Shown here piece after piece: positions 15,918 to 31,204 of a DNA stretch of 32,000 nucleotides (position 1 is the stretch's first letter; each line of letters opens with the position of its first letter). Source of the stretch: an archaeon. Its GTDB lineage: Archaea > Iainarchaeota > Iainarchaeia > Iainarchaeales > 1-14-0-10-31-34. Position numbers and translations under genes: made by a program. The stretch is taken from contig JAJRVL010000011.1 in the NCBI GenBank assembly GCA_024277355.1, positions 30,001 to 62,000 on the forward strand, given 5' to 3'. The notes under the pieces were generated by a model. That model was not told where the DNA came from, did no database searches, and saw only the letters and a program-made list of their open reading frames with translations.

Positions 15918-16826
15918 TTATTCTGCGAATTGCTCGTATTCTTCTGAATTAAACCTGTATAAAAATCGCTTGATTTTTGAATTTTTAAAAGAATATTTTT
16001 CTATTACTTTTTCTTTTTTTCCTGAGAATTCCTCAAAAGGTGTTTTTTGTGAGGGGTCAAACAAATAAAAATTATTTTTGTATTCTGTAATTACAAAAGT
16101 ATGAGTAGATAAATTTTCCAGTTCTGCTACAACAACAAAAGCTTTTTCATCTCCTAAAGCATAAAGCAAAGTACATAAAAAAACCGCAATGTCTTCATCA
16201 TCTGCAATTTTATGTCTTAATATTTCTGAAGGAGCCATCCAATAATTGATTTTTAAATTTGATTCAACAAAAGAAATTTCTTTTACAACAAAGTCAAACG
16301 CTTCTTTTGCAATAGTTAAATAATTTTTTTCAAAAGAATAATCAGAAGAAATTAATTCAGCTAAAATTGCCTGAATGCTTAAATCATCAGGATCAATTAA
16401 TCCTTTGATTTCTCCAATAGTTTTCTCTTCTTTTTCATTTATTATTTCAGTGTATTTTTCAAGCAAAAAAGAATAAAGCTTGAATTTAAGTTCTTTTTCT
16501 TTTTGTTTGTAATCTATTTCTGAAACTGATCCTAAAGCCTGCCTTAATTTAGAATATTTTTCATATAAATCATTGTATTGAGATTGTTTTTTTGCTAATT
16601 CTAATTCAAAAACAGCAGTTGATTTTTTTGGTTTAGGAAACTGAATTTCATTTAACTTTAATTTTAATTTAGCTAATTTAACTTCAAGTTCAGGTTTAGA
16701 TAAATCATCTGCTTTTTTCAAAGAAGATTCTAATTCTTCAATTTTTTTCCATAATTCCTGTTCTTCTATTGCCTTTGATTTAACTGGGAACATTAAATAA
16801 AAGCCCACAGAGAATGATTTAAACAT
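15918..16826 (-). CDS. Coiled-coil protein with C-terminal transglutaminase-like (Cys-His-Asp) core
   Basis: The N-terminal half is heptad-like and Lys/Glu-rich. The C-terminal DIAVFLCTLLYALGDEKAFVVVAELENLSTHTFVITEYKNNFYLFDPS has the C...H...D order and spacing of transglutaminase-like cysteine peptidase cores. The start is uncertain (M1 or M12). Confidence 0.45.
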   Translation of the reverse strand: MFKSFSVGFYLMFPVKSKAIEEQELWKKIEELESSLKKADDLSKPELEVKLAKLKLKLNEIQFPKPKKSTAVFELELAKKQSQYNDLYEKYSKLRQALGSVSEIDYKQKEKELKFKLYSFLLEKYTEIINEKEEKTIGEIKGLIDPDDLSIQAILAELISSDYSFEKNYLTIAKEAFDFVVKEISFVESNLKINYWMAPSEILRHKIADDEDIAVFLCTLLYALGDEKAFVVVAELENLSTHTFVITEYKNNFYLFDPSQKTPFEEFSGKKEKVIEKYSFKNSKIKRFLYRFNSEEYEQFAE

Positions 16827-16947: not shown

Positions 16948-17346
16948 TTGAAGGGACAAATTTCAATTGAATATCTTACTTTAACTGCAATTGTTCTCCT
17001 TATTGTAGGAGTAATGTTTGTTTTTGCAATAACAACTGTAAATGAAAACGCAAGACTTAATTCAGCTTATTATGCTACAAGAGAATTAGCTAATGCAGCA
17101 GATGAAGTAAGTACTAGAAATGGAAGCACTATTGTGGTTGAAATTGAACTGCCTTCAGATGTAACTTCTTTTTCAACTTTTGGGACAGACATTACAATTG
17201 AAATGACGTCTCTTTTAAATTCATTTCAGGTTTTTGATTCAAGCAAGGCATCATTACAGCCGACAAATTTTTCCACTTCAGAAGGAACTCATTTTATTGC
17301 AGTGAATTCAACTGATTCAAATATCACTTTTACTGAACTTAATTAA
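16948..17346 (+). CDS. Type IV pilin-like protein with class III signal peptide (DUF361/Epd type)
   Basis: N-terminus MKG|QISIEYLTLTAIVLLIVGVMFVFAI has a short basic leader, a Gly at -1, the QxSxEYLxL motif and a hydrophobic helix. TTG start with GGTGA at 16939-16943. Confidence 0.8.
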   Translation: MKGQISIEYLTLTAIVLLIVGVMFVFAITTVNENARLNSAYYATRELANAADEVSTRNGSTIVVEIELPSDVTSFSTFGTDITIEMTSLLNSFQVFDSSKASLQPTNFSTSEGTHFIAVNSTDSNITFTELN

Positions 17347-17357
17347 AGGGATTATAA

Positions 17358-17714
17358 ATGAAAGGGCAGGTTTCAATGGAAGTAATTATTGGAGCAATAA
17401 TTTTATTGCTTGTATTGGTTTTTATCTGGATTTACAGTATTCAAACAAATGAAGGAATTGATGCATTAAAAAATTCAGTTGAATCAAAATCTTACTGCAG
17501 AGAAATTGCAGATACAATTAGTTCAGTTTATGCTTCAGGAACAAAAACTACAATAGAATTTTATTCAGAAAAAGACTTTAATTTAAGCAATGGAATGGTT
17601 GATGTTAATGGTTTTCTCTGCAGTTATTATGCTGAAGCAGAAGAAAAATTTATAGCAAAAGGAAACATAAGAATAAAAGATTTGAACGGGGTTGTCGTGA
17701 TTGAAAATATTTAA
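17358..17714 (+). CDS. Type IV pilin-like protein with class III signal peptide
   Basis: N-terminus MKG|QVSMEVIIGAIILLLVLVFIWIY. It starts 11 nt after the previous pilin gene. Confidence 0.75.
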   Translation: MKGQVSMEVIIGAIILLLVLVFIWIYSIQTNEGIDALKNSVESKSYCREIADTISSVYASGTKTTIEFYSEKDFNLSNGMVDVNGFLCSYYAEAEEKFIAKGNIRIKDLNGVVVIENI

Positions 17715-18270
17715 GAGAAAATGCTCGGCTGAGCAAAGCGAATGCCGTGCACCGTCACACCCGAGCGGAATCGGGTCGCGAGCGAAATCGCGAGGGCAGT
17801 CAAGTTTAATTGATTTAGTTATTGGGTTTTTTATTTTTGCTTTGATTCTTGCTTCAATTATGGGAACTATAAATAAAAATACAAAAGATTTCACTAGAAA
17901 TTCAGAAATAGATGAAATAAATCATGATTCTTTTTTTTCAGTAAAAGAATTAACTGAAACAAAAGGTTTTCCTGAAAACTGGGAAATATTAGATGAAAAT
18001 TCAGTTGAAAAAATAGGTTTAATTGAAAGGAGAAATACAATAAGTGAAGACAAAGTTGTTGCTTTTTCTAATATGACTTACAGCAAAACAAAAGAACTAC
18101 TTAAAATAGAAGGATATGATTATTATTTTGTATTAAACGGAGTAGATAATATTACTGCAGGAATAAATCCTGTTGGGCAAACAAAATATTCAATTATTAC
18201 TAAAAGAATTGTAAATTATAAAGGAAGTGAAGCTGAAATTGAATTCAGATTATATGAACTCTGGGAATAA
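17701..18270 (+). CDS. Pilin-like protein with an unusually long (33-aa) leader
   Basis: A pilin-type core SRG|QSSLIDLVIGFFIFALILASIMG is preceded by MKIFKRKCSAEQSECRAPSHPSGIGSRAK. The only in-frame start is TTG 17701. The leader is encoded by the GC-rich island. Confidence 0.6.
   Translation: MKIFKRKCSAEQSECRAPSHPSGIGSRAKSRGQSSLIDLVIGFFIFALILASIMGTINKNTKDFTRNSEIDEINHDSFFSVKELTETKGFPENWEILDENSVEKIGLIERRNTISEDKVVAFSNMTYSKTKELLKIEGYDYYFVLNGVDNITAGINPVGQTKYSIITKRIVNYKGSEAEIEFRLYELWE
17722..17800. other. GC-rich island with two tandem 6-bp-stem hairpins
   Basis: Hand count gives 51/79 G+C, against 14/60 in the next 60 nt. Hairpins are ACCCGA-GCGGAA-TCGGGT (17759-17776) and TCGCGA-GCGAAA-TCGCGA (17776-17793). 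An alternative long-range pairing is GCTCGG (17723-17728) with CCGAGC (17761-17766). Confidence 0.6.
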
Positions 18271-20974
18271 AGGATTTACTTTTACTTTAGATTCAATTCT
18301 TGCCTTGCTTATAGTTTCAGGAATAGTTATTTCTTCAGGATTATTTTTTACTGAAGAAAAAACTGAAATTAATTTAAGCCAGGAATTAAATGATTCATTT
18401 AATGCAATGGAAGAAACAGGTTATTTGATTAGTCAAGTGGATACAAATGTTTCTGGTTCAGCACAAAATATTTACAATAAATTAATTGGTTTTTTTCCTG
18501 ACAGAATTGACTTTAATGTAACTGTAAAAGAATTAGACTTAAATAATACAAACTGCAGAGCAACACCAACTTTTAACGGCTGTTTTACTGATTCAAATGA
18601 ATTTACTTTTGGTTCAAGTGTTCCAACAGACAAAACAATTTTTTATGGAAAAAAATTAATAATAAAAAAACAACCTCCAGGAGAATGCGATACAAATATG
18701 CTTGGATTAGCAGAATATCCTTTTACATTTTATGAAAAAAACGATATCTTGTTTTTTGCGGGATCTGGAGATTTAAATTTTGTTTTTGATGTAAATGTAA
18801 CTCCTTCAACTGAAATTGAATGCGACCAGAACATTACAATAGATTTAAGTGCAGCATTTCCTCCGGGTTATAGAAGACCTGTGGACATAATGCTTGTAAT
18901 AGACAAAAGCGGTTCAATGAGCTGGGGGGGAAGATATGATACAAGCAGTGCAAGAGGAATAGATTTAGATGGAAATTATGCATATATTGCAGATTATAGC
19001 AATGGAATAAGAAGTTTTGATATTAGTGTTCCTTTAGTTCCTCAGTATTTGGATAGATATGATACTTACAGAGCATATGATGTTTTTGTTGATGGAAGTG
19101 AAGCTTATTTGGCAGATTATTCATCTGGAATACGGTCAATTGATGTAAGCGATCCAAATAATATGAGTCAGGATGACAGAGTTGATTTATCTGTAAATTA
19201 TTCTTTTGGAATAACAGTTAATGGAAATTATGCTTTTGCAGGCAATGGTTCAAGAGGAGTTGATTCCTATGACATAAGCAACCCAAACAACATGAATCAA
19301 TTAGACAGATATAATACGCCTGGAACTGCAAGAGGAATTGATGCAAACGGAGACTATGTTTATGTTGCAGATGGAGGAAGAGGATTAAGAGTATTAAATG
19401 CCTCAGATCCAAATGATTTATCTAATGAAGATTCTTTGGATTTAGGAGGATATGCTTATGATGTAAGAAATGTTGGAGATTATGCTTTTGTTGCAAATGG
19501 TTCAAGAGGATTAGATATTTTTGATGTAAGTGATCCTTCAGACATCAGTTCAAGAGGGCGGTATAATACTGCTGGAACTTCTTATGGAATTGATGTTGTT
19601 GGAAATACAGCTTATATTGCTGACGGAGGAGGAGGATTATATTCAATTGATATTAGTGATGTTGACAATCCTTCTTTAATTAAGAGATATGATACTCCTT
19701 ATACTTATTATGATGTAAGAGTGAAAAATGGTTATGCTTTTATTGCAGCAGGAAACATGGGGTTAATTACTTTGGATTTAACTTCAGGAACAAAAATGGA
19801 TGCAGTTCATGCTTCAGCTAATGCTTTTGTTGACTTTAATGAATGGACTGATAATGATCAAATGGGAATTGCAAGTTTTAATACAAGTTCAACTTTGGAT
19901 TCACAATTACTAAAATTAGATGACACAAACAAAACACAATTGAAAAATGATATTAATGCAATAACTCCTGGCGGAGGAACAAACATTGAAGAAGGAATAA
20001 GAGAAGCAACAGATGAATTAATTTCAAGCAGAGCAGATCCTTATGCAATAAAATTTATGGTGTTGCTTTCAGACGGAGTATCAACTTCAGGAGATTCACT
20101 TGATGCAGCACAAGATGCAAATGCAGAAGGAATAACAATTTATACAATTGGATTTGGCGGAGATGTAAGTGAATCAGAACTGCAGAATATTGCTAATGCA
20201 ACTGATGGAAATTATTATTTTGCTTCAGATGCAAATACATTAATAGACATCTATAATATTATTGCAGATAAAATTCAGGCTCAAGCAACTGATTCAAATG
20301 TAACAATTGTTGTTCCAAGTAATGTAACAATAATTAATGACGGAAACGCATCAATAATTGACGGCAATTTAGTTTTTGATTCAGGAAATATTACTCCTGA
20401 TACTCCCTGGCAGGGAAGTTATATCATTAATATTCCTTGTGATTCAAATTTAAGCTGCGACACTGCTTCAATTACTTTTCCCGGCCAAGGAAGCTTTTTG
20501 TCTTATGTTGATGTAAACGGAGTAACACAAACAGTTGACTGGAATAGTTTTACTGTTCCAATTCCATTTAAGAAAAGAGACATTACAGTTGAAATTACTA
20601 GTGGAGAATTGTTATCTGAAACAGATATTTTTATTGATGTAAATGTATCAAATATTGGGGATTTAAATACCGGAACAACAGACTTAAATTTTTATTTAGG
20701 AAATGATTCAATCTGCAGTATTGGAGCAGGAAGAACTCTTTTGTCAAATCATTATTTAGTTCCGGAATTATGCGGAAGCAATGATGAAAACTGTTCTTTT
20801 TCTACAACGCTTTATTTGGATGAATATATGTTAAGTCAGGGAATAATTTGTGCTGAAGTTAATCCTGACAGAAATTTAAAAGAATGTCCAAATAATAATC
20901 TTGATTCAATTCACTGTTATTTAGCTCCAAAAACACAGTTTTATGTAATTGAATACAGAGGATGGATTAAATGA
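18254..20974 (+). CDS. Pilin-signal-bearing giant adhesin candidate: vWA domain interrupted by a seven-repeat LVIVD beta-propeller, plus CARDB-like C-terminal region
   Basis: The ATG at 18254 gives MNSGNKG|FTFTLDSILALLIVSGIVI, a prepilin-like N-terminus. vWA strand beta1 and the MIDAS DxSxS are in VDIMLVIDKSGSMS (D at 18902). Seven LVIVD-type repeats follow. The vWA then resumes (KMDAVHASANAFVDF, MGIASFNTSS, PGGGTNIEEG, MVLLSDGVSTSG, TIYTIGFG). The C-terminal ITVEITSG...IDVNVSNIGDLNTGTTDLNFYLG is CARDB-like. Confidence 0.85.
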   Translation: MNSGNKGFTFTLDSILALLIVSGIVISSGLFFTEEKTEINLSQELNDSFNAMEETGYLISQVDTNVSGSAQNIYNKLIGFFPDRIDFNVTVKELDLNNTNCRATPTFNGCFTDSNEFTFGSSVPTDKTIFYGKKLIIKKQPPGECDTNMLGLAEYPFTFYEKNDILFFAGSGDLNFVFDVNVTPSTEIECDQNITIDLSAAFPPGYRRPVDIMLVIDKSGSMSWGGRYDTSSARGIDLDGNYAYIADYSNGIRSFDISVPLVPQYLDRYDTYRAYDVFVDGSEAYLADYSSGIRSIDVSDPNNMSQDDRVDLSVNYSFGITVNGNYAFAGNGSRGVDSYDISNPNNMNQLDRYNTPGTARGIDANGDYVYVADGGRGLRVLNASDPNDLSNEDSLDLGGYAYDVRNVGDYAFVANGSRGLDIFDVSDPSDISSRGRYNTAGTSYGIDVVGNTAYIADGGGGLYSIDISDVDNPSLIKRYDTPYTYYDVRVKNGYAFIAAGNMGLITLDLTSGTKMDAVHASANAFVDFNEWTDNDQMGIASFNTSSTLDSQLLKLDDTNKTQLKNDINAITPGGGTNIEEGIREATDELISSRADPYAIKFMVLLSDGVSTSGDSLDAAQDANAEGITIYTIGFGGDVSESELQNIANATDGNYYFASDANTLIDIYNIIADKIQAQATDSNVTIVVPSNVTIINDGNASIIDGNLVFDSGNITPDTPWQGSYIINIPCDSNLSCDTASITFPGQGSFLSYVDVNGVTQTVDWNSFTVPIPFKKRDITVEITSGELLSETDIFIDVNVSNIGDLNTGTTDLNFYLGNDSICSIGAGRTLLSNHYLVPELCGSNDENCSFSTTLYLDEYMLSQGIICAEVNPDRNLKECPNNNLDSIHCYLAPKTQFYVIEYRGWIK
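18950..19789 (+). repeat. Seven tandem ~40-43-aa LVIVD-type repeats (coding, protein-level periodicity ~120-126 nt)
   Basis: Repeat cores are GNYAYIADYSNGIRSFDIS, GSEAYLADYSSGIRSIDVSDP, GNYAFAGNGSRGVDSYDISNP, GDYVYVADGGRGLRVLNASDP, GDYAFVANGSRGLDIFDVSDP, GNTAYIADGGGGLYSIDISD and NGYAFIAAGNMGLITLDL. Confidence 0.8.
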
Positions 20975-21930
20975 AAAATAAAGGAATCTTTTTTCTTTTA
21001 ATGGGATTAATTCTTTCTCTTTTAGTTTTGGGTTTTGGATTTAAAATAAACCAGCAGTATCTTGAAGCAGAAAAAAAATCATTTAATTCAAATGCATTAC
21101 AACAAGTTAAAAACAAATACTCAAATATTAATTCAGTTAAAGACTTTTACAGAGAAGGAACAATAAAAACTTATTTTGAAAGAATTGTTCCGATTACTTA
21201 TTCGGTTGATGAAAATACAATAAGCATTACTCAACAGCTTCCGATAAAAAAAGCTTTAGTGCGAAATTTTTTTGATTTTGTTAATGCATTTGAAATTTTC
21301 ACTGAAACAACTGATTCATTAGTTTATGACGGAATAGATGTTGAAATTGAAACTGTTCAAAACAGTTTATGGGGAGGAACAGATGAAAACATTGTTTTAA
21401 TGATTAAACCTCAATGCAAAAAATATTCAATTACAGATTATAATTCAATGCATTTTTATGGTTCAAATGAATGCGACAATGCTTTTGATATCAGTTTAAT
21501 TGAAAGAATTGACATAAATATTACTGTAAGTTCAGATGATGATTTTAACAGATTATCCTGTAATTTCGGAGGCGATTTAGTCTGTTATCAGGAAACTTAT
21601 GTGCCTGCAAACCCAAATCCATTTATTGAAATAAACTTGATTGATTCAGCCTGCCCTAATTGCGATTTAAATTCAGATACAAGAACAATAAAAAAACATT
21701 TTACTCCTACTTCTGCAAACACAGTAATTTTTTCATGTTCAGGAACATGCACTTCTCTTCCAATAGAAATATTATTTAATGAAAATAATACTGAAATAAG
21801 GCATTCAGGAACAACAATAAGTGTTAAAACTGAATTTTTGTTTACAGACAAAATAACTGAATTTGAATTAAATGATTTAAACATAAGTTTAACTGACTCA
21901 AAATTTAGTATAACAAAAACAAATAAGTGA
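20971..21930 (+). CDS. Pilus-operon protein with N-terminal pilin-like hydrophobic segment; otherwise unknown
   Basis: N-terminus MKNKG|IFFLLMGLILSLLVLGFGF. Its ATG overlaps the upstream stop (ATGA). The mature part contains several Cys. Confidence 0.5.
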   Translation: MKNKGIFFLLMGLILSLLVLGFGFKINQQYLEAEKKSFNSNALQQVKNKYSNINSVKDFYREGTIKTYFERIVPITYSVDENTISITQQLPIKKALVRNFFDFVNAFEIFTETTDSLVYDGIDVEIETVQNSLWGGTDENIVLMIKPQCKKYSITDYNSMHFYGSNECDNAFDISLIERIDINITVSSDDDFNRLSCNFGGDLVCYQETYVPANPNPFIEINLIDSACPNCDLNSDTRTIKKHFTPTSANTVIFSCSGTCTSLPIEILFNENNTEIRHSGTTISVKTEFLFTDKITEFELNDLNISLTDSKFSITKTNK

Positions 21931-21934
21931 AAAA

Positions 21935-22996
21935 ATGAATGCCATGAATTTAATTTCAATAATTGCTTCAATAGCAATAATAATTGCAGTGTTTTTTGTC
22001 GCTAATGAAAACATTGTTAATTTTGAAAACACAAAAACACAAATAGAAATTCAATCAAAAGAAAACTTTGAACAAGGAGAAAATGCAGAATTTATAATAA
22101 ACATAGAAAGCGGAAAAGAAATAACAAAAATAATTTATATTTCTCCCACAAAAAGAGAAGAAAAAAATTGCGGAAAAAAAACATGCGTTTTGACTTTTAA
22201 GGAAATATTTACAGAAAAAGGAGTTTTTTTTATTGAAATAAAAGTTGAAATAGGAAAAGAAACATTCAGTGAAAAAAAGAAAGTTTATGTAAATGCCGCA
22301 GGAAAAAAATGTTCTGATGGAACTGCTTTTGGGTTATGCTCTTTAAACAAACCACAATACTGCAATAACGGCAAACTTGAATATAACTGTGAAAAATGCG
22401 GATGTGAACAAGGAGAATGCATTAATAATAAATGCAGTTATTCAGGAACAACTGAAATTACAGGAATTTCACTTGAAAGAACATTTTTTGAGCCAAATCA
22501 GGAAGTGAAAATTAATTTAAATTCAAAAGAAAATAGTTTAGTTAATGTTGTAATTGAATGGAAAAAAGACAATAAAACAGAAAAAACAGAAACAAAAAAT
22601 ACTTCATTAAATTATGTTCTGTCAGTTTCTCCGCCAAAAGAAGGAGTATATGAATTAAACTTAGTTTTTGAAGAAAAAGTTTTTTCAGTTGAAAACATAA
22701 CAATAAGAAATGACTCAACACCCCCAAAAACACCTGAAGGAATTATTGCAAGCAAAAGAAACGGAAAAATACTTATTGCATGGAATCCAAATACTGAAGC
22801 TGATTTAATGGAATACAGAATTTACAGGAGTAAAGAAGATAATCAGGCGTTTACAACTTATACTATGGCAGAAACTGCATCAAAAAATGAAACCGGGAAA
22901 GAACTTGAAATATGGTCAACAAATTATTTTTACATTACTTCAGTTGACTATTACGGCAATACATCAAAGCCAAGTGCAATAATTGAAGCAACGTGA
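21935..22996 (+). CDS. Membrane-anchored protein with an 8-Cys knot motif and a C-terminal fibronectin type III domain
   Basis: N-terminal TM helix (LISIIASIAIIIAVFFV). The Cys-rich block is CSDGTAFGLCSLNKPQYCNNGKLEYNCEKCGCEQGECINNKC. The FN3-like C-terminus is PPKTPEGIIASKRNGKILIAWNPNTEADLMEYRIYRS...YFYITSVDYYGNTSKPS. Confidence 0.6.
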   Translation: MNAMNLISIIASIAIIIAVFFVANENIVNFENTKTQIEIQSKENFEQGENAEFIINIESGKEITKIIYISPTKREEKNCGKKTCVLTFKEIFTEKGVFFIEIKVEIGKETFSEKKKVYVNAAGKKCSDGTAFGLCSLNKPQYCNNGKLEYNCEKCGCEQGECINNKCSYSGTTEITGISLERTFFEPNQEVKINLNSKENSLVNVVIEWKKDNKTEKTETKNTSLNYVLSVSPPKEGVYELNLVFEEKVFSVENITIRNDSTPPKTPEGIIASKRNGKILIAWNPNTEADLMEYRIYRSKEDNQAFTTYTMAETASKNETGKELEIWSTNYFYITSVDYYGNTSKPSAIIEAT

Positions 22997-23042
22997 AAAT
23001 TAAAAAGAATAAATAACTAAATATAACAACAGGTAATTAAAA

Positions 23043-24809
23043 ATGGAAAAAGAACAGCAGAAAAAAAATTTATTAATAAGCAAAATGCTTGAAGCAAAAA
23101 GAATAGAATTAGGAATCATAGAAAACCAGTTATTATACAAACTAAAAATTTTATTTAAAAAACCTGAAAAAACTAAAAGCCAAAAAATAAATGAACTAAA
23201 AAAAAGTCTTGAAAAAAAAGAAACAGACGAACTTGAATTAATGCTTGTTGAAAAAGAACACGCATTAATAAAACTTGAAACAACAGTAAAAGAAAAAAAA
23301 GACAAAGAAAAATTAAAAGAAGTAATAAAACTAGTTGAAAAAATAAAAAACAGTGAAGGCGAAAGAGGCAAAATAGGAATGGAAATAGGCTTAAAAAGAA
23401 AAGAAATAAAAGAACTCAAAAAAGAAGTAGAACAGAAATTAAAAGATATAACCAGAGAAAAAACTATTCTGACTCCAAAAAAGAAAAAAATTAAGAAAAC
23501 AGAAATAAAAAAAGGAAAAAAAACTAAAAAGAAAAAAGAAAAGAATTCTTCAACTCTTCTAAAAAAAAGAAAAAAAGAAAAAGTTTCAGGTTCATCCAGA
23601 AAATTAAAGAAAAAAACTAAAATAGAAATGAAAAAACCAAAAATTTCTTTTTCTTCACCTGAAGAAGAATTAAAAGCAAAAAGAGAACAAGAAGTAAAAG
23701 AAAAAAGGAAAAAAGCCATGGCTGCATTTCATCAGAATTTTACTTCAGGAAACGAAACTTTAATTAACATTAAAGGAAACGCTCAAATAGTTTCAGGAAC
23801 AAGAGGCACAGGAACAACAGGAATAAACAATAAAGAAACAGCAAAACAAACTGAATATGCTGAAAGCAGAAAAAATGAAGAACTTGAATTTGACATACAG
23901 AAAACAAAAGAAAAAATAAAGAACTTAAAATCCGCTTTTTTCCACAGACAAATAAATGAAGAAACATACAAGAAAAAACAGTTTGAATACCAAGAAGAAT
24001 TAAGCTCACTTGAAATGGAAAAAAAAAGGCCAAAAAAAAGAAGTTTTGCTCCTGTTCAAAAAACAGAATCTGTTTCAGCTTATGCAGGATTAAAAACAGT
24101 TCAGGATGAAAGCGTTCAGTTTGCAACAAAACACACTCAAAAAAGCAGAGCAAAAGTAAAAAATGCATTAAAGAGATTTAAAAAAGAATTTAATGCAGGT
24201 TCAAAAACAAAAGCCAATTTAGATTCCGAAGAAAAAACACGTGTTAAAACTGAACCAGAAGAAATAAAACCAACCGGAATAATAAAAAGACTTGCTCCTG
24301 GAACAAGCCAGGAAAAAGAAATGGAAATGGAAAAAAAGCTTTATAGGGTAATGCAAAAAAATCAGATTGACCAAAGCAGGATTAGAAGAGAATTTGAATT
24401 TGTTTCAGCTAAAGATTTAATGAAAAGGTTTGACAAAATACTTGATGTAATTGACAACAAGTATTCTCAAACAGAAAAACCTGCAGAAAAAGAAGAAAAG
24501 CCATTTGAAGAAGGATTGTATGTAACAAACAAACAAACTTCCCAAAAAACAGGAGAAATAAGAGACATAAAAGAAAAAATAATAGTAACTGATTTTGACA
24601 GATTACTTGAATTAGTAAATAAAAAAGGAAAAGTAAACGAAAAAGAAGCAGAAAAAACACTTAAATTAAGTCCAGAAAGAATAAAAGAATGTTATACTGT
24701 ATTAGAAAAGAATGACTTAATTAGAATAGAATACCCTATGTTTGGAGGAACACAAATTTTTTCAAAAAATTTTGTTGAACCAAAAAAAATTAAAAAGAAA
24801 AAAAAGTGA
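23043..24809 (+). CDS. Lys/Glu-rich coiled-coil or disordered protein with C-terminal winged-helix-like module
   Basis: 588-aa ORF in the pilus operon ending 4 nt before the ATPase gene. It is extremely K/E-rich. The C-terminal DFDRLLELVNKKGKVNEKEAEKTLKLSPERIKECYTVLEKNDLIRIEYP looks like a wHTH. Confidence 0.6.
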   Translation: MEKEQQKKNLLISKMLEAKRIELGIIENQLLYKLKILFKKPEKTKSQKINELKKSLEKKETDELELMLVEKEHALIKLETTVKEKKDKEKLKEVIKLVEKIKNSEGERGKIGMEIGLKRKEIKELKKEVEQKLKDITREKTILTPKKKKIKKTEIKKGKKTKKKKEKNSSTLLKKRKKEKVSGSSRKLKKKTKIEMKKPKISFSSPEEELKAKREQEVKEKRKKAMAAFHQNFTSGNETLINIKGNAQIVSGTRGTGTTGINNKETAKQTEYAESRKNEELEFDIQKTKEKIKNLKSAFFHRQINEETYKKKQFEYQEELSSLEMEKKRPKKRSFAPVQKTESVSAYAGLKTVQDESVQFATKHTQKSRAKVKNALKRFKKEFNAGSKTKANLDSEEKTRVKTEPEEIKPTGIIKRLAPGTSQEKEMEMEKKLYRVMQKNQIDQSRIRREFEFVSAKDLMKRFDKILDVIDNKYSQTEKPAEKEEKPFEEGLYVTNKQTSQKTGEIRDIKEKIIVTDFDRLLELVNKKGKVNEKEAEKTLKLSPERIKECYTVLEKNDLIRIEYPMFGGTQIFSKNFVEPKKIKKKKK

Positions 24810-24813
24810 TTAA

Positions 24814-26334
24814 ATGAAAGAAAAAGTTTTAGAAACATATAAAGTAAAATCAATTGAAACAGAAATAGAAGTAAATATTATTGAAAGAGAAAAAGAAGTA
24901 GTAAGAATTTATTTTTTAAATTTTCCTGAATTTGGAGCAGGAACAAAAGCCGTATTAAAAAATTTAAAAAGAAGCATTATAACTGATTCAACAATTCAGG
25001 CAGAAAAAATGATGGATCCTAATTTTGTTGATTCACTTAAAAGAAAATTTCAGGGAAGAGCAGAAAAAATACTTGAAAAAGAACTTCCAAATATAGCTGA
25101 AGGCTCAAAAAGTTTGTTAATAGGATTATTATTAGAAGAAATGCTTGGATTAGGCAAATTAGAGTTTTTATTAAATGACGGAAACATTGAAGAAATAGTT
25201 GTAAATACTGCAACTGAACCAGTATGGATTTATCATAAAGGATATGGCTGGCTGAAAACAAATGTTTTTATTACTCCTGAAAAAGAAATACAAAATTATG
25301 CAAGTATTATTGCAAGAAGAATTGGAAAACAAATTACAATATTAAATCCTTTGCTTGATGCACATTTAATTACAGGAGACAGAGCTAATGCAACTTTATT
25401 TCCTATTTCAAGCAAAGGAAACACTATTACAATAAGGCGTTTTAGAAGAGAACCATACACTATAACTGATTTTGTTGAAAACCGAACACTTAACACCGAT
25501 ATAATGGCTTTAGTATGGCTTGCAATGGAATATGAATTAAACATTATTTTTTCAGGAGGAACAGGTTCAGGAAAAACCACTTCATTAAATGTTTGTCTGC
25601 CTTTTATTCAGCCAAACCAAAGAATTTTAAGTATAGAGGACACAAGAGAACTTTCACTTCCAGAATATCTCCACTGGGTTCCATTAACTACAAGAGAACC
25701 AAACACTGAAGGAAAAGGCGAAGTAACAATGCTTAATTTATTAGTTAACTCTTTAAGAATGCGTCCAGACAGGCTGATTGTAGGAGAAATCAGAAGGCAA
25801 AGAGAAGCAGAAGTATTATTTGAAGCAATGCATACAGGACATTCAGCTTACACTACTTTTCACGCTAACACAGCAGAAGAAACAATCAGAAGATTAGTTA
25901 ATCCTCCAATTGAAATTCCAAAAACAATGCTTGATTCAGTTCACTTAAATATAGTAATGTTTAGAAACAGAAGATTAAATGTAAGAAGAGTGCTTCAGGT
26001 AGCTGAATATGTAACTGAAAGAAGAGGAGACACAGAAGAAGTAAAAGCAAATATTTTATATCGATGGAAAGGAGCAACAGATACAATAGAAAAACATTCT
26101 GAAAGCATTAGATTATTTGATGAATTAGGATTACATACAGGTTTAAGCAAACAGGAAATGAACAATGAATTAAAAACAAAAAAGAAAATTCTTGACTGGA
26201 TTACATCAAACAAAATTCGTTCAATACAGCATGTTGGAAGGATAATGGCAGATTATTATATGAATAAAGACAACATAATTGAATTAGCAGAAAAAAACAA
26301 AAAACCAGATTATATTTTTGAGGAGAAAAAATGA
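24814..26334 (+). CDS. Type IV filament assembly ATPase (FlaI/EpdL/TadA-like, T2SSE/VirB11 superfamily)
   Basis: Walker A FSGGTGSGKTT, Asp box ILSIEDTRELSLP, Walker B RPDRLIVGEIR and His box GHSAYTTFHAN, plus a ~230-aa FlaI-like N-terminal domain. Confidence 0.92.
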   Translation: MKEKVLETYKVKSIETEIEVNIIEREKEVVRIYFLNFPEFGAGTKAVLKNLKRSIITDSTIQAEKMMDPNFVDSLKRKFQGRAEKILEKELPNIAEGSKSLLIGLLLEEMLGLGKLEFLLNDGNIEEIVVNTATEPVWIYHKGYGWLKTNVFITPEKEIQNYASIIARRIGKQITILNPLLDAHLITGDRANATLFPISSKGNTITIRRFRREPYTITDFVENRTLNTDIMALVWLAMEYELNIIFSGGTGSGKTTSLNVCLPFIQPNQRILSIEDTRELSLPEYLHWVPLTTREPNTEGKGEVTMLNLLVNSLRMRPDRLIVGEIRRQREAEVLFEAMHTGHSAYTTFHANTAEETIRRLVNPPIEIPKTMLDSVHLNIVMFRNRRLNVRRVLQVAEYVTERRGDTEEVKANILYRWKGATDTIEKHSESIRLFDELGLHTGLSKQEMNNELKTKKKILDWITSNKIRSIQHVGRIMADYYMNKDNIIELAEKNKKPDYIFEEKK

Positions 26335-27224
26335 TTGATAAAAGTGAAATAATTCCTTTCAATATTCTTCCAGTTCCATTAATAAAAAAACTTTCAATGA
26401 AATTTTATGGTACAGGAACAAAATTATCAAAATTTTTTCCTGATTTAAAATTAGAGTTAGCTCAGGCAGAATTAGCTTACAGCGAAAAAGAATACAGTGC
26501 AATAATCATTACAATGGCAGTAATTTACGGTGTTATTGGATTAATAATTGGATTATTGTTTGGTTTCAGGCTTTTTCCTGATGGATTTATTTTAGTTGGG
26601 TTAGGCGGAGGAGCATTAGTTGGTTTTTTTGTAATGTTTCAGGTTGCTTTTTATCCAAAAATAAAAGGAAAAAAGAAAATAAGAGAAATTGAAAGAAATT
26701 TAATTTTTGCTTTAAGGACAATGAGTGTAGAAATAAAATCAGGAGTTTCATTATTTGATTCACTTAATATTATAGCACAAGGAGATTATGGTGCTTTATC
26801 AATTGAATTTGGCAAAGCAGTAAAAGAAATTGAAACAGGAACAATGGAAGAAAATGCATTAGAAAAAATTGCAAGATATAATCCTTCATTGTTTTTCAGA
26901 AGAAGTATATGGCAGATAATTAATGGAATGAAAGCAGGAGCAGATGTAAGTTCAGTAATGGAAGAATTAGTTGCAACAATGATAAGAGAAGAAAAATTAC
27001 AGATAACAAGATACGGTAATTCAATGAAATTACTTTCATTAATGTACATGATGTTAGGTGTAATAATTCCTTCTTTAGGAATAACTTTTTTGATTATATT
27101 ATCTTCTTTTCCTCAAATGCAGTTAGGAGAATTATTATTCTGGATGTTATTAGGAGTTATTATTGTAGGTGAATTTATGTATTTAGGAATATTAAAATCA
27201 AAAACACCAAATTTAATGGGATAA
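26331..27224 (+). CDS. Pilus platform membrane protein, single T2SSF domain (TadB/EpdJ-like)
   Basis: A cytoplasmic helical T2SSF-type domain (LIFALRTMSVEIKSGVSLFDSLNIIAQGDYGALSIEFGKAVKEIETGTMEENALEKIA) is flanked by TM helices. Its ATG overlaps the ATPase stop. Confidence 0.8.
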   Translation: MIDKSEIIPFNILPVPLIKKLSMKFYGTGTKLSKFFPDLKLELAQAELAYSEKEYSAIIITMAVIYGVIGLIIGLLFGFRLFPDGFILVGLGGGALVGFFVMFQVAFYPKIKGKKKIREIERNLIFALRTMSVEIKSGVSLFDSLNIIAQGDYGALSIEFGKAVKEIETGTMEENALEKIARYNPSLFFRRSIWQIINGMKAGADVSSVMEELVATMIREEKLQITRYGNSMKLLSLMYMMLGVIIPSLGITFLIILSSFPQMQLGELLFWMLLGVIIVGEFMYLGILKSKTPNLMG

Positions 27225-27225
27225 A

Positions 27226-28209
27226 ATGTATGAAAAAATTAGTTCAATGATTCCAAGAAATGTCTTAAAGGCATTTAAAAACGAATTAACATATGCAGGA
27301 ATAGACTTAGATGAAAAAAACTTTGTTGGTTTTGTGTTTGTTTTTGGTTTTGCAACAGCAATTGCAGCAGGATTTGCTTTAAATTTCTTTTTTTCACTTC
27401 ATTTTTTTATTGGATTTATTACAGGATTTATTTTAACTGTAGGGGGAATTTATTACCTGCTTAATCAGGCAGGAGACAGCAAAGCAAGATTTGTAGAAAA
27501 AATTCTGCCTGACGCACTTCAATTAATTGCTTCAAACATGAAGTCAGGATTAACAACAGAAAAAGCATTATTGGTTTCATCAAGACCTGAATTTGGTGCA
27601 TTAGCAATAGAATTAAAATAAGCAAGCAAAAAAATGATGACTGGAGAAAGAACTGAAACAGCCTTAAAAGAAATGACTTTAAAAATAAGATCAAAAATTT
27701 TCAGTAAAACAGTCTGGCTTATAACAGAAGGAATTAATTCAGGCGGAGAAATGGCTAACTTGCTTTTACAGTTGTCTAATGATTTAAGAGAGCAGAATGC
27801 ATTACAGGAAGAAGTAAAAGGAAATGTTTCAATGTATGTAATTTTGATTTTTTTTGCTTCAGTTATTGGCGCACCATTAATGTTTGGAATAAGTTCTTTT
27901 ATTGTACAGATAATGGCAAAACAAGCAGGTGGTTTATCAGGATTATCAGAAGAAAGTTTAGCTTTAGCTTCATCTCAAGGAGCATTTTCATCTGGAACAG
28001 GAATAAGTATTACAGCTGACTTTATTGTAATGTTTTCAATGATAACTTTGTTTGTTATTTCAGTTTTTGGTTCACTTACAATAGGAATAATAAGTACTAG
28101 AAGTGAAAAAGGCGTAATAAAGAATATTCCTTTAATGTTAATTTCATCTTATGTGATTTACTTTATTGTTTTAACTGTATTACAATCAACTTTTAGTTCA
28201 TTGGTTTAA
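27226..28209 (+). pseudogene. Second single-T2SSF-domain platform gene (TadC/EpdK-like) interrupted by one in-frame TAA at 27619-27621
   Basis: ORFs 27226-27621 and 27634-28209 are in the same frame, separated only by TAA plus four sense codons. Read through, PEFGALAIELK*ASKKMMTGERTETALKEM aligns to GDYGALSIEFGKAVKEIETGTMEENALEKI of the paralog, with the stop opposite a Lys codon. Confidence 0.65.
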
Positions 28210-28409
28210 AACAAAAATAACGCTAAAAAAAAAGTTAATTAATTCTTAATTCAATAAAAACATAAACAACTAAAAGAACAAAAATAATTACAATTAAAAA
28301 ATAAAAAAAAATACTAATTAAAAATATAAACAACTAAAACAGAAAAATAAATTAAAATTCAATAAATATCAATAACTAAAAAAAAATAATTATCATTAAC
28401 TAAAAAATT

Positions 28410-28430
28410 AAAAAAAAAGAAAAAGAAAAG
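28410..28430 (-). terminator. Oligo-T tracts (archaeal-type termination signal) downstream of the pilin gene
   Basis: On the minus strand, within ~15-35 nt after the stop, there are T4, T5 and T9 runs (plus-strand A-runs at 28426-28429, 28420-24 and 28410-18). Confidence 0.35.
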
Positions 28431-28443
28431 TGGAAGTTTAAGT

Positions 28444-28878
28444 TTAAACTGTTCCACTGCAAGTTGTTTTTTCTGATTTGGTTATTCCGCCTGTAACTGT
28501 ATAATTAATTGTTACGTCTTCTGTAATGTTTCCTGAAAAAGTGTTTCCGCCTAAAACAAATGTGTTTTCATCTGTTTTTGCAAGCGAGGCATCTCCTGAT
28601 GCAGAACCGTCTGCCCAAACAATAGTACCAGAACTTCCTGTAAAGCTATTAATGGTTATTGCATTAGGATTAGTGTTTTTAATTGTCAACTGAATGGTGT
28701 CTGCGTTAAAATCATAGTCTTTAATAAACAACTTTCCTCCGGTTGCAGTGCATTGTTTTGGAGTATTAAACACACCAAAAGCAAATAAGGCTGCAATTAC
28801 AATTACAATTACAACCAAAGCCCAACCATAAGTCATCAGGTATTCCAATGCAGATTGTCCTTTTGTATCTTTAAACAT
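28444..28878 (-). CDS. Type IV pilin with class III signal peptide (candidate major pilin)
   Basis: N-terminus MFKDTKG|QSALEYLMTYGWALVVIVIVIAALFAFGV (QxSxEYL motif). It is monocistronic, has a GGAGG SD 7 nt upstream of the ATG, and has oligo-T tracts just downstream. Confidence 0.85.
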   Translation of the reverse strand: MFKDTKGQSALEYLMTYGWALVVIVIVIAALFAFGVFNTPKQCTATGGKLFIKDYDFNADTIQLTIKNTNPNAITINSFTGSSGTIVWADGSASGDASLAKTDENTFVLGGNTFSGNITEDVTINYTVTGGITKSEKTTCSGTV

Positions 28879-29081: not shown

Positions 29082-29780
29082 ATGCCAAGATTAACTGACA
29101 GAACAAAAACAGGAGTTCCAGGATTAGATGAATTACTGGACGGCGGGATTCCAAGAGGAAATTTAGTTGTATTAGCAGGAGACCCTGGTTCAGGAAAAAC
29201 CTGTTTTTGCCTTGAATATCTATACAAAGGAGCATTGGATTACAACGAACCAGGAATATATATTTCATTAGAAGAAAGCTATGCTGAAATAATACGAAAC
29301 GGAAGAGAATTTGGATATGAATTAGAAGAATTAATAAAGAAAAAAATGCTGATAATTGAAACAGTAGAATTATATGATTTTGAAAAACTGAAAAATTTAA
29401 TTGAAGATTCAATTCAGATAATTAATGCAAAACGATTAGTAATTGATCCTGGAGTAATTTTCAGATTATATTTTGATAGAGAATTAGATGCAAGAAAAAG
29501 AATAATGAGTTTAGGAAAAATGCTTAAATTAATTGACTGCACTACTATAATAACAAATGAAATTAATTTAGACAAAACAAGAAGTTTATTTGGATTAGAA
29601 GAATATGTGGCTGACGGAGTGTTGTTGCTGTATCATACAAAAATAGAAAACAGGTTTGTAAGAAGTTTAGGTGTATTAAAAATGAGAGGAACAAAAATAT
29701 CAGAAAAACTTCATCCAGTTACAATCGGCCCAACAGGAATAAAAGTTTTATCAAAACAAGAATTATTTGAGGATATATAA
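29082..29780 (+). CDS. KaiC-like single-domain RecA-superfamily ATPase (COG0467 type)
   Basis: TGVPGLDELLDGGIPRGNLVVLAGDPGSGKTCFCLEYL (Walker A), RLVIDPG (Walker B strand) and LGVLKMRGTKISEKLHPVTIGPTGIKV (typical KaiC-family C-terminus). Confidence 0.85.
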   Translation: MPRLTDRTKTGVPGLDELLDGGIPRGNLVVLAGDPGSGKTCFCLEYLYKGALDYNEPGIYISLEESYAEIIRNGREFGYELEELIKKKMLIIETVELYDFEKLKNLIEDSIQIINAKRLVIDPGVIFRLYFDRELDARKRIMSLGKMLKLIDCTTIITNEINLDKTRSLFGLEEYVADGVLLLYHTKIENRFVRSLGVLKMRGTKISEKLHPVTIGPTGIKVLSKQELFEDI

Positions 29781-29781
29781 A

Positions 29782-30609
29782 ATGAAGAAAAAAAAAGCAA
29801 AACAAAAGGTTAAACTGAAAAAAGCAGTTAAAAAACCAAAAAACAAAAAAAAGCCAAGTTCAATTAAAGAATTAGAAAACTTACTTACAAAACCATTAAA
29901 GCAGAAAAGAACTTTTGTGACAAAAGAAGAAAAAAGTATTGTAAAACAAAAAAATAAAATAAACAGCAAAATTGAAATGAAAACAAATCTTGAACAAGAA
30001 ATCCATCCTGATGCTGAATTATCAGAATTAATTGACCCAAAAAGAGGCATTGACTTAAAGATATTAAGATATTTAGAAGAACTTCCAAAAGAACAGTTTA
30101 CTGCATTGCTTTTAGTTGAACCAACAAATTACTCTAAAATAAACTATGAATTATTAAGGCTTTTAATAAACCATACAAAAGGAAAAGGAATATATGTAAC
30201 TTTAAATCGTGCTTATGAATTTGTAGAAGAAACACTAAAAAAAGAAAAAATTGATACAGAACAAATAGTTTTCATTGATGCAATAAGCAAAGGAACAGGA
30301 AAAAACATTGTATCCAGAGAAAACGTTGAATACATTGAATCCCCAAGAGATTTAACTGCATTAAGTGTAATATTAGATGAAACATACCAGAAAATGACAG
30401 AAAAACCAAAATTTATGGTGTTTGATTCAATCAGCACTTTATTGATTTACAATGATGTTTCTTCAGTTGAAAGATTTACTCATTTAATTATAGGAAAATT
30501 AAGGGAATGGCGGATGAAAGGAGTATTATTAATGGTTAAATCAGAAGAACACAGAGGAGTAGTTAATTCATTAAGCCAGTTCTGCGACAGAATTCTTGAA
30601 ATAATATAA
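29782..30609 (+). CDS. KaiC/RecA-like paralog lacking a P-loop, with polybasic N-terminal tail
   Basis: The ATG at 29782 lies 1 nt after the upstream stop. After MKKKKAKQKVKLKKAVKKPKNKKKP... the region LLVEPTNYSKINYELL occupies the P-loop position. KFMVFDSISTLL is Walker-B-like, and GVLLMVKSEE...LSQFCDRILEI resembles the KaiC-family C-terminal strands. Confidence 0.55.
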   Translation: MKKKKAKQKVKLKKAVKKPKNKKKPSSIKELENLLTKPLKQKRTFVTKEEKSIVKQKNKINSKIEMKTNLEQEIHPDAELSELIDPKRGIDLKILRYLEELPKEQFTALLLVEPTNYSKINYELLRLLINHTKGKGIYVTLNRAYEFVEETLKKEKIDTEQIVFIDAISKGTGKNIVSRENVEYIESPRDLTALSVILDETYQKMTEKPKFMVFDSISTLLIYNDVSSVERFTHLIIGKLREWRMKGVLLMVKSEEHRGVVNSLSQFCDRILEII

Positions 30610-30625
30610 AAATCAAAAACAGAAA

Positions 30626-31204
30626 CTATAAATCAAAAACAAAATTCTTTTTCACTGAATTAAAAGGAAAAGCAGTTAATTCAACAAACAATTTTTTTTC
30701 TTTAACTTCAAAGAAAAAATTATAATCCATCATTTTTTTTATATTCATTAAAACAGCATTATCATGCAGTCTTTCATCAATAAAACACACAACTGAATAA
30801 TTCAGTTCTTTTGCTTTTCTTGTTTCAAAAAACAAAAAAGAATAAACTGCATTAGAAGGATTAAATGAAAGTAAAGAAGACAAAGAATCAAATAATAAAA
30901 TTCCTTTGTTTTCTTTTTTGCCTTGAACTGAATGAATTGAAGAAGAAATTTCAGGAAGAGAAAACCCTTCAATTTCAACTGCTTTTTTTCCAAAACCATA
31001 TTTTGATATAACAAAAAAGTCATCCATTAAAGAAGAATAATTTGATGGATTAAATAAAACTAAAATGTTTTTTTGGTTTTTGTTTTTTTTAAACATTAAT
31101 TCAATTAGTTTTTTTGCCTGAACTGACTTTCCGGAAAACATAATGCTTGAATTAGGCTTTACTCCTAATAAATCAAAAGAAAAATTCATAATAAAAAAAC
31201 ACAT
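30626..31204 (-). CDS. Short RecA/KaiC-like paralog with degenerate P-loop
   Basis: SSIMFSGKSVQAKKLIELMF is a degenerate GK[ST] motif. GILLFDSLSSLL is a Walker-B-like strand, and SVVCFIDERLHDNAVL is a later strand. The start may be the M at 31189. Confidence 0.45.
   Translation of the reverse strand: MCFFIMNFSFDLLGVKPNSSIMFSGKSVQAKKLIELMFKKNKNQKNILVLFNPSNYSSLMDDFFVISKYGFGKKAVEIEGFSLPEISSSIHSVQGKKENKGILLFDSLSSLLSFNPSNAVYSFLFFETRKAKELNYSVVCFIDERLHDNAVLMNIKKMMDYNFFFEVKEKKLFVELTAFPFNSVKKNFVFDL

Follow-up and report, generated by a model that had tools for sequence, protein, structure and literature searches.

A probable adhesive type IV pilus operon with a two-gene platform and a modular vWA/propeller pilin in a DPANN archaeon

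The archaeal DNA described here is a stretch of 32,000 nucleotides from contig JAJRVL010000011.1 (assembly GCA_024277355.1, positions 30,001 to 62,000), which we call the window. Between 16948 and 28209 it carries ten consecutive genes on the + strand, with junctions ranging from a 44-nt overlap to a 46-nt gap and taken, because of this spacing, to form an operon. Very probably this operon serves an adhesive type IV pilus of a tiny-genome archaeon of the DPANN group (Diapherotrites, Parvarchaeota, Aenigmarchaeota, Nanoarchaeota as well as Nanohaloarchaeota), nearest to metagenome-assembled genomes (MAGs) labelled “Candidatus Iainarchaeum” or Diapherotrites. Five of its products carry class III (prepilin) signals; the others are a surface protein with an N-terminal anchor, a Lys/Glu-rich protein, the T2SSE ATPase and a pair of platform proteins, each with one T2SSF domain. 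A sixth protein with a prepilin-type signal is encoded apart. An earlier reading of the window, made from the letters alone and called here the sequence-only reading, had placed all genes from 16948 to 28209 on the + strand with gaps of no more than 46 nt, and the coordinates of the open reading frames (ORFs) agree with it. Its description of the cluster as complete did not hold up, since the second platform gene contains an in-frame TAA.

The window has a G+C content of about 27% and includes housekeeping genes, e.g., those for LeuRS, PGK and GAPDH; the nearest relatives of its proteins come from MAGs labelled “Candidatus Iainarchaeum”, Diapherotrites or Micrarchaeota. For comparison we used related loci from one genome per species, selected by an ATPase at least 50% identical to the query, and 80 loci were returned. 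They are labelled as MAGs of Iain-, Woese-, Pace-, Nano-, Aenigmat-, Micr- and Altiarchaeota, with some mis-binned “bacterial” names in addition. The contigs L011, L019 and L020, which carry this archaeal locus, are deposited as Falkowbacteria or Chloroflexi/Chloroflexota and point to faulty binning of public MAGs.

ATPase homologues of at least 50% identity are spread across DPANN, and in all 67 informative related loci, from several DPANN phyla, two distinct platform ORFs come directly after the ATPase gene, their median lengths being 297 and 327 residues. The ATPase with its split platform is a conserved, DPANN-wide locus, and the cluster is not peculiar to this genome. The full pilin, vWA and accessory set occurs only in an Iainarchaeota-like subset of the related loci. 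Synteny is complete in L001 (a 364-kb contig, GCA_964608675.1), L002 (a Joint Genome Institute [JGI] metagenome contig) and L003, with protein identities of 50 to 93%. In L001 and L002 the gene order is identical from the transglutaminase-like gene upstream of the operon to the KaiC-like and DUF7504 genes downstream of it (Table 1), and identity to the window runs from 50% for the Lys/Glu-rich protein to 86-93% for the ATPase and the KaiC-like protein.

Table 1. Features of the pilus locus and its flanks in window coordinates. An arrow (↓) marks the predicted prepilin cleavage point.
Feature	Position	Strand	Description	Evidence or remark
Transglutaminase-like protein	15918..16826	-	divergent; no transmembrane segment	DUF553 25.0 bits vs cut-off 20.5; CEPT76_peptidase E 4.4e-6
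Minor pilin 1	16948..17346	+	132 aa; MKG↓QISIEY, E+5 and Y+6; TTG start	
Minor pilin 2	17358..17714	+	118 aa; MKG↓QVSME	signal kept in 10/10 homologues
Minor pilin 3	17701..18270	+	189 aa as ORF; ...SRG↓QSSLIDLV	
GC-rich insert	17720..17800	+	~80 nt, 63-67% G+C, in frame in leader-coding part of minor pilin 3	
Modular pilin-like (vWA/propeller) protein	18227..20974	+	915 aa as ORF	LVIVD E 1.4e-34, VWA E 3.9e-22 (Pfam)
Pilin-like protein p5	20971..21930	+	319 aa; MKNKG↓IFFLL; 8 Cys	
N-terminally anchored surface protein p6	21935..22996	+	353 aa; 10 Cys; without prepilin cleavage motif	
Lys/Glu-rich protein	23043..24809	+	588 aa; cytoplasmic; winged-helix domain at about aa 510-575	
Pilus assembly ATPase	24814..26334	+	506 aa; archaeal secretion ATPase family	T2SSE E 4.4e-37
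Platform gene 1	26331..27224	+	297 aa; one T2SSF domain; N-terminal half of FlaJ/UpsF equivalent	T2SSF E 1.7e-16
Platform gene 2	27226..28209	+	C-terminal half of FlaJ/UpsF equivalent; interrupted	aligns to UpsF 264-480 of 484
In-frame TAA in platform gene 2	27619..27621	+		sequence read directly
Candidate major pilin	28444..28878	-	144 aa (137 mature); MFKDTKG↓QSALEYLMTYGW	convergent, monocistronic
KaiC-like ATPase	29082..29780	+	232 aa; single domain	Pfam KaiC E 2.1e-59
DUF7504 protein (degenerate KaiC/RecA-like)	29767..30609	+	adjoins KaiC-like gene	DUF7504 E 2.1e-9
Degenerate DUF7504/ArlH-like protein	30626..31204	-	192 aa	faint DUF7504 E 0.039, FlaH E 0.003

Assembly ATPase, winged-helix neighbor and platform

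The Walker A sequence GGTGSGKTT is seen in the translation of the assembly ATPase, a T2SSE secretion ATPase that the sequence-only reading had put in the FlaI family. It is not an archaellum FlaI, since with the FlaI model (NF058587) it reaches 277 bits and the cut-off is 550; the TadA-family model (TIGR03819) gives 198 against 373, and the BasE model 144 against 1000. The best solved relative is AfGspE of Archaeoglobus (PDB 2OAP; 238 bits, E 1.8e-69), which was placed in clade 2 by Makarova et al. 2016 (PMC4858521). The alignment to AfGspE is near full length (residues 20 to 487) and includes the C-terminal helical region; FlaI and CpaF align over the core only (CpaF, E 5.6e-48). Core identities of 41% to AfGspE, 39% to CpaF and 37% to FlaI do not discriminate between clades. 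The Pfam profile PilB3_C gives a faint 14 bits here and 27 bits, at threshold, in homologues that are 66% identical. Judged by these comparisons, the ATPase appears to be no less similar to AfGspE, of clade 2, than to CpaF, a feature that does not fit the Epd/Tad group.

FlaI is nevertheless the top NCBIfam score for this ATPase, some sources call its homologues “FlaI”, and a single-domain KaiC-like ATPase is encoded nearby, as FlaH is in archaella, all of which could be taken as signs of an archaellum or a cluster derived from one. Against this, the FlaI score is half of the cut-off and the similarity to solved FlaI extends over the core only; the KaiC-like protein, tried as ArlH/FlaH, was rejected with 44 of the 215 bits required; Pfam and NCBIfam find no genes for archaellins, FlaF, FlaG or FlaC/D/E; and the platform is split, unlike the two-domain FlaJ. 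With archaellins and FlaF/G looked for beside the ATPase and not found there, we regard an archaellum as effectively refuted, its likelihood being close to nil, and the original call of a type IV pilus stands.

The gene before the ATPase encodes a protein with 43% charged residues and no transmembrane (TM) segment. Its Lys/Glu-rich composition had been noted correctly, but its conserved C-terminal winged-helix domain had been missed. Only the last ~65 residues are widely conserved (window 24570-24770; ETDxD...EEWAxILEE...YPxxGxP), and a profile of this domain, built from ORFs of the related loci, matches IclR/Lrp winged helices in the PDB (E 9e-7). Across DPANN phyla, in about 54 of 64 related loci, the gene that directly precedes the ATPase encodes a protein ending in this domain; in other phyla the N termini of these proteins are often membrane-spanning, as opposed to Lys/Glu-rich here. 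No description of such a conserved partner of the ATPase was found in the literature searched.

The two platform genes map to the N- and C-terminal halves of UpsF/ArlJ. Platform gene 1, with four TM-like segments, aligns to residues 8-248 of 555 in the ArlJ model and 27-242 of 484 in the UpsF model; the scores of the halves are low (31-35 bits against a cut-off of 400 for UpsF, and 37 bits against 550 for ArlJ). This mapping agrees with the proposed TadB/TadC (EpdJ/K-like) split, as distinct from the fused FlaJ/PilC, and a split platform is a signature of the Epd-like plus Tad clade according to Denise et al. 2019 (PMC6668835). The sequence-only reading was also right that each gene has a single T2SSF domain, but the second gene is not one ORF.

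The TAA at 27619-27621 splits platform gene 2 into ORFs of 131 and 191 residues. Read through the stop, the gene matches T2SSF over its full length (profile 2-121 of 125, E 3.1e-13), which places the stop within the domain. In 71 of 72 related loci one ORF runs across this position, the exception being cut by a contig end, and the gene is intact in L001 (329 residues) and L002 (328 residues). At this codon the four nearest relatives have GAA, GAA, AAA and CAG, one base change away in the case of GAA or AAA. Stop-codon recoding was considered and rejected, as TAA ends 22 of the 31 window genes. The TAA is either a recent nonsense mutation that inactivates the machine or an assembly/consensus error.

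Were the mutation real, the locus would be a decaying remnant, its platform unable to assemble and no pilus made. The stop is unique among the 72 related loci, TAA is a normal stop here with recoding unlikely, and the public gene calls for the source contig likewise report platform gene 2 as fragments of 131 and 191 residues. On the other side, only a single base separates the stop from GAA or AAA, neither platform gene 2 nor the other genes of the locus have further stops or frameshifts, and both halves are 73-79% identical to intact orthologues; the sequence, moreover, comes from a metagenome assembly, where errors in single bases and minority alleles occur. With an ATG-ATG four codons downstream of the TAA, two fragments might still be produced. 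We consider decay a possibility to be taken seriously, if a somewhat doubtful one, and retain the adhesive pilus operon as the preferred reading.

Pilins and the candidate tip adhesin

The (K or R)-G↓Q class III signals that had been claimed for the first three operon genes are kept in orthologues. Two further signals, KG↓FTF in the vWA/propeller protein and KG↓IFF in the protein that follows it, had been missed, which makes five signal-bearing proteins in the operon. Minor pilins 1 and 2 and the candidate major pilin follow the +1/+5 rule of the DUF361 type (G-1, Q+1 and E+5); minor pilin 3 has Q+1 but D at +6, and in the vWA protein and in p5 the +1 residue is F or I. The claim of a DUF361-type motif stands by eye and by conservation, on which our class III motif calls rest, and not by profile: Pfam Class_IIIsignal (former DUF361) gives 23.2 bits for minor pilin 1, just below the cut-off of 23.7, and does not match the remaining pilins of the locus. 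The mature N termini of the candidate major pilin (G↓QSALEY) and of minor pilin 1 (G↓QISIEY) fit the pattern of bacterial Flp, G↓XXXXEY, having E+5 and Y+6, and position +6 in the pilin family is Y or F.

Minor pilin 1 has a single N-terminal hydrophobic helix and keeps its signal in 20 of 22 homologues, some of which have large C-terminal extensions. Minor pilin 2 shows a faint match to DUF7287 (E 0.067). Minor pilin 3 is the most widely conserved pilin of the related loci: the signal [KR]G↓Q....D[LF] and a G.P..WE motif are kept across DPANN loci, and 6 of 23 family members match Pfam DUF7287 (best E 2.6e-7). Its 32-residue leader is atypical because of a GC-rich insert, the sole strongly GC-rich island in the window, of which there is a homologous copy in L003 (about 825-905), a degenerate one in L001 and none in L002. 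A structured RNA in this insert is unsupported, with no Rfam match and one compensatory pair in a two-sequence alignment.

The two proteins between the vWA/propeller protein and the Lys/Glu-rich protein had both been described as N-terminally anchored. That suits p6, which has a single N-terminal TM segment and a class III motif in only one of seven orthologues, but p5 carries a class-III-like signal in 13 of 14 orthologues. Neither Pfam nor NCBIfam gives a family for p5, and for p6 there is only a faint Ig-like (immunoglobulin-like) Pfam match; an FN3-like pattern seen by eye at the p6 C terminus was not picked up by Pfam and is not claimed.

The separately encoded 144-residue pilin is the best candidate for the major subunit, as had been suggested. 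Its start is preceded by AAAGGAGGAAGATAA-ATG, and the GGAGG site, at -10.0 kcal/mol when computed against an assumed anti-Shine-Dalgarno sequence, is the best of the 31 genes, in keeping with the earlier statement that this gene has the strongest Shine-Dalgarno site. The class III signal (...TKG↓QSALEYL) is kept in 53 of 55 homologues, and Q1, A3, E5, L7, T9, Y10 and W12 of the mature N terminus are invariant in the family; the C-terminal part is beta-rich. The family comprises 3706 clusters at E <= 1e-3 in a representative library, most members being 130-170 residues long, and has up to three tandem copies in L068 and L069.

These pilins bear on what the machine builds. Instead of a pilus, it might make a short pseudopilus or bindosome-like assembly by which the vWA/propeller protein and p5, both large and with class III signals, are anchored and displayed in the envelope. 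The operon does have two such large proteins, its ATPase matches the BasE model at 144 bits, and a 2026 preprint (10.64898/2026.04.22.720090) makes the case that binding proteins with class III signals are in wide use for functionalising the type IV filament machines of archaea. We judge this improbable, however: a small pilin with the strongest translation signal and tandem copies in relatives points to a filament shaft, and the locus differs from the Sulfolobus bindosome (Bas) in a BasE score far under the cut-off of 1000 and in having no substrate-binding-protein domains detectable with Pfam or NCBIfam.

The fourth operon protein had been identified as a vWA/propeller protein, and the Pfam matches to LVIVD and vWA confirm it. 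Its start is likely the ATG at 18254, giving a form of 906 residues that is also found in the public gene call P0121. The parts of this form are, in order, a KG↓FTF signal, a pilin-like helix, a small domain, a vWA domain interrupted by a seven-bladed LVIVD propeller, and two beta-sandwich domains; the KG↓F of its signal (...NKG↓FTFTLD) is kept in 13 of 13 orthologues. We used 16 homologues to make an AlphaFold model, with a mean pLDDT (predicted local distance difference test) of 82.3. In this model a long N-terminal helix at 12-54 is followed by a small alpha/beta domain, the first vWA strand and DxSxS loop at 210-223, 28 strands forming seven propeller blades at 226-508, the remainder of the vWA fold at 514-675, and the two beta-sandwich domains at 678-905. 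The propeller (residues about 224-510 of the 906-residue form) is thus inserted directly after the DxSxS metal-binding loop of the vWA domain. D217, S219, S221, T576 and D607 are invariant in 16 of 16 homologues and are read as the predicted residues of a metal ion-dependent adhesion site (MIDAS), which would be intact. Foldseek searches of the PDB gave beta-propellers, with the Lactobacillus pilus tip adhesin SpaC at rank 2-3 (E 7e-13). Full-length proteins with the vWA-inserted-propeller architecture number about 16 among the matches listed from a database of 5.8 billion proteins, and no description of such a pilin was found in the literature searched.

By analogy, the 915-residue protein is a probable tip adhesin. 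Like the vWA adhesins PilY1, TadG, Streptococcus sanguinis PilB and SpaC, it brings together a vWA domain with a predicted metal site, a propeller and Ig-like domains, and is encoded among minor pilins; unlike them, it has its own prepilin signal and pilin-like helix. For PilY1, TadG and PilB the likeness is to their architecture as we take it to be. The propeller of PilY1 follows the vWA domain, whereas here it lies inside that domain, after the first metal-binding loop, and no sequence homology between the two was shown.

A filament used for exchange of DNA or other macromolecules with a host (competence-like or Ups-like), as opposed to adhesion, has been a subject of speculation in papers on DPANN type IV pili (PMC5498576), and the platform halves do match UpsF weakly. 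We think such a use very unlikely. The UpsF scores are less than a tenth of the cut-off (31-35 bits against 400), neither the locus itself nor, in relatives, the DNA up to 10 kb from the ATPase holds genes for DNA processing or DNA-binding uptake, and the combination of vWA, propeller and Ig-like domains is a typical adhesin architecture. An adhesive pilus remains the reading that we favor.

Turnover is much faster in the adhesin/pilin module than in the motor, as seen when L004 (4565-8121) is compared with window 16948-22996. The ATPase and the transglutaminase-like protein of L004 are 87% and 79% identical to those of the window, but its pilins only 30-41%. The first pilin is enlarged to 473 residues, the sixth gene is missing, and a 164-residue KG↓F pilin stands in place of the 915-residue protein, a swap that fits an adhesin module grafted on a pilin scaffold.

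Flanking genes and the prepilin peptidase

The transglutaminase-like gene upstream of the operon probably starts 11 codons further in than its ORF, and it has the same position in L001, L002, L004, L010, L012, L013, L015-L018 and L024. Downstream, the KaiC-like ATPase is 91-93% identical to the copies in relatives, the highest value in the neighborhood, and is found beside many related loci, and the DUF7504 protein recurs near the ATPase in many DPANN loci. The 192-residue DUF7504/ArlH-like gene is syntenic in L001 and L002, and it is uncertain whether its product belongs to the pilus system. Together these three genes (29082-31204) are syntenic with the pilus locus in close relatives. KaiC-family ATPases are associated with clade 2 type IV pilus loci (Makarova et al. 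2016, PMC4858521).

Several other predicted surface proteins are encoded upstream of the pilus locus. One of 380 residues (223-1365) has a signal at the N terminus, an anchor at the C terminus and a TRAP_beta-like match; one of 962 residues (2245-5133) has a lipobox-like N terminus and a C-terminal anchor and matches no family; and a 172-residue ORF (7797-8315) is lipoprotein-like.

The sequence-only reading had seen no prepilin peptidase, which Pfam and tblastn searches of the window bear out. A Peptidase_A24 domain occurs within 10 kb of the ATPase in one of the 80 related loci. Strict and relaxed searches for the GxGD motif in 82 loci gave one true match, L074:2-841. This A24 peptidase (E 2.5e-8) has ~6 TM segments and, at the C terminus, faint matches to Arc_PepC, and looks FlaK/PibD-like and not EppA-like; tblastn with this peptidase gave no further match. 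EppA, a dedicated enzyme with nine TM segments, is absent from the window and the related loci. A dependence on EppA, which had been implied, is unsupported, the sole locus-linked peptidase in relatives being FlaK/PibD-like. The prepilin peptidase is normally encoded away from this locus, and a peptidase encoded away from the pilus locus has been reported for the DPANN archaeon Mia14 (PMC5498576).

Relation to known systems and a proposed mechanism

The label Epd/Tad-like, which the sequence-only reading gave to the cluster, is apt for the split platform, the Q+1/E+5 pilins and the transglutaminase-like neighbor, and inapt for the long major pilin and the lack of EppA. As in the Epd pilus of Methanococcus maripaludis (clade 1 of Makarova; “system 1” of Sivabalasarma & Albers 2026), two one-domain platform genes stand beside the ATPase, there are five or more minor pilin-like proteins with the major pilin encoded outside the operon, the signals end in G and are followed by Q+1 and E+5 (PMC3875500), and a transglutaminase-family gene is linked to the locus, a linkage noted for clade 1 loci by Makarova et al. 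2016 (PMC4858521). A 2026 preprint reports that DPANN have system 1 with a platform that is split, and mentions for some of their loci an adhesin like PilY. In contrast to the Epd pilus, the major pilin here has 137 mature residues and a globular beta domain, where Epd/Flp pilins have about 60-75 and are headless; the locus has no EppA gene, and the peptidase next to that of a relative is FlaK/PibD-like; and Y or F is found at +6, reported to be absent from M. maripaludis pilins.

Bacterial Tad/Flp systems, which derive from an Epd-like archaeal system according to Denise et al. 2019 (PMC6668835), share with the locus a platform of two one-domain proteins, an ATPase core 39% identical in CpaF, a pilin N terminus (G↓QSALEY) that fits the Flp pattern, and a vWA-containing pilin-like protein, as TadG is. 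They differ from it in a pilin much shorter than the one here and in the order of the platform genes, which here is N-half then C-half; the TadA-family model is well below its cut-off with our ATPase, and no domains of a secretin (RcpA), TadZ, TadD or RcpB/C are found in the window ORFs.

Euryarchaeal adhesion pili (clade 2 or “system 2”: Haloferax PilB3-PilC3, PilA) resemble the locus in other respects. Their AfGspE is the closest solved ATPase, PilB3_C reaches its threshold in close homologues though it is faint here, KaiC-family neighbors are typical of clade 2, and the third pilin family matches Pfam DUF7287. They have, however, a single two-domain platform gene (2026 preprint), as against the split found here and in all 67 informative related loci, and the pilins here are of the Q+1/E+5 kind and not of the Pilin_N type, to which Pfam finds only a faint match at the locus (E 0.037).

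A more far-reaching interpretation is that the DPANN family defined by this ATPase and fissioned platform is a deep archaeal branch of the Epd-like/Tad lineage, and that the vWA domain with inserted propeller on a minor pilin represents a class of archaeal pilus-tip adhesin not described before, whose exchange among close relatives would alter the specificity for hosts or surfaces. The family in question has pilins with a complete Flp-like N terminus, G↓XXXXE(Y or F), and a KaiC/FlaH-like second ATPase nearby. We offer this as a tentative proposal that is rather unlikely to be right in full; if true, it would bear on the origin of bacterial Tad pili. The plainer description is that the locus is an archaeal type IV pilus of known kind, which holds no surprise for a specialist, and that the vWA-with-inserted-propeller pilin and the winged-helix partner are variations on known themes and not a new kind of system.

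For such an adhesive pilus, the following scheme draws on the established mechanism of type IV filaments for its peptidase, ATPase and platform steps. An aspartic A24 prepilin peptidase, encoded elsewhere in the genome, would cut the six precursors after (K or R)-G, and the hexameric ATPase, acting on the two-protein platform, would lift the pilins from the membrane and stack them through the hydrophobic helices at their N termini. If bacterial minor-pilin/PilY1 complexes and modular pilins are a fair analogy, the five operon pilin-like proteins may form a priming complex that ends at the pilus tip, while the strongly translated separate pilin would build the shaft. The protein of 906-915 residues would be a minor pilin with a grafted adhesin, made up of a vWA domain with an intact predicted MIDAS, an inserted seven-bladed propeller and two Ig-like domains, and at the tip this module may present a metal-dependent binding surface for a host cell or a substrate. 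The winged-helix protein, translationally coupled to the ATPase, and the KaiC-like and DUF7504 proteins are probable regulators or motor partners, roles that we assign to them from conserved adjacency only.

Several points weigh against an adhesive pilus built in this way. Platform gene 2 as sequenced has a premature stop, and Peptidase_A24 is found neither among window ORFs of at least 80 residues nor by tblastn. The profile of the major pilin family matches PDB chains 8q30, 8fk7 and 8fj5, multi-copy chains that we take to be archaeal pilus subunits, but the matches are weak (E 9e-4 to 8e-3), and a single-sequence AlphaFold model of the candidate was poor (pLDDT 57) and not used for a fold search. 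That the vWA/propeller protein sits at the tip is proposed only by analogy. The 164-residue pilin of L004 is similar to the 915-residue protein over about the first 20 residues, so that the evidence for their correspondence is positional. The operon structure is drawn from gene spacing, the promoter and terminator scan having been of the bacterial type (sigma-70, intrinsic terminator) and uninformative for an archaeon, and all functional assignments were made from sequence.

DPANN archaea live attached to other cells, and few of the molecules of first contact are known. The locus described here offers candidates for this contact in a conserved motor, a shaft pilin of a very large family and a pilin-anchored vWA/propeller protein, the last of which differs between close relatives, as expected of a specificity determinant. 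The stop in platform gene 2 is an annotation warning, showing that “complete” machines in MAGs need checking at the level of single bases. Finally, the one-domain split platform, regarded as characteristic of Epd and Tad pili, prevails throughout a DPANN-wide family, so that these genomes can serve to test whether bacterial Tad pili have the archaeal origin proposed for them.

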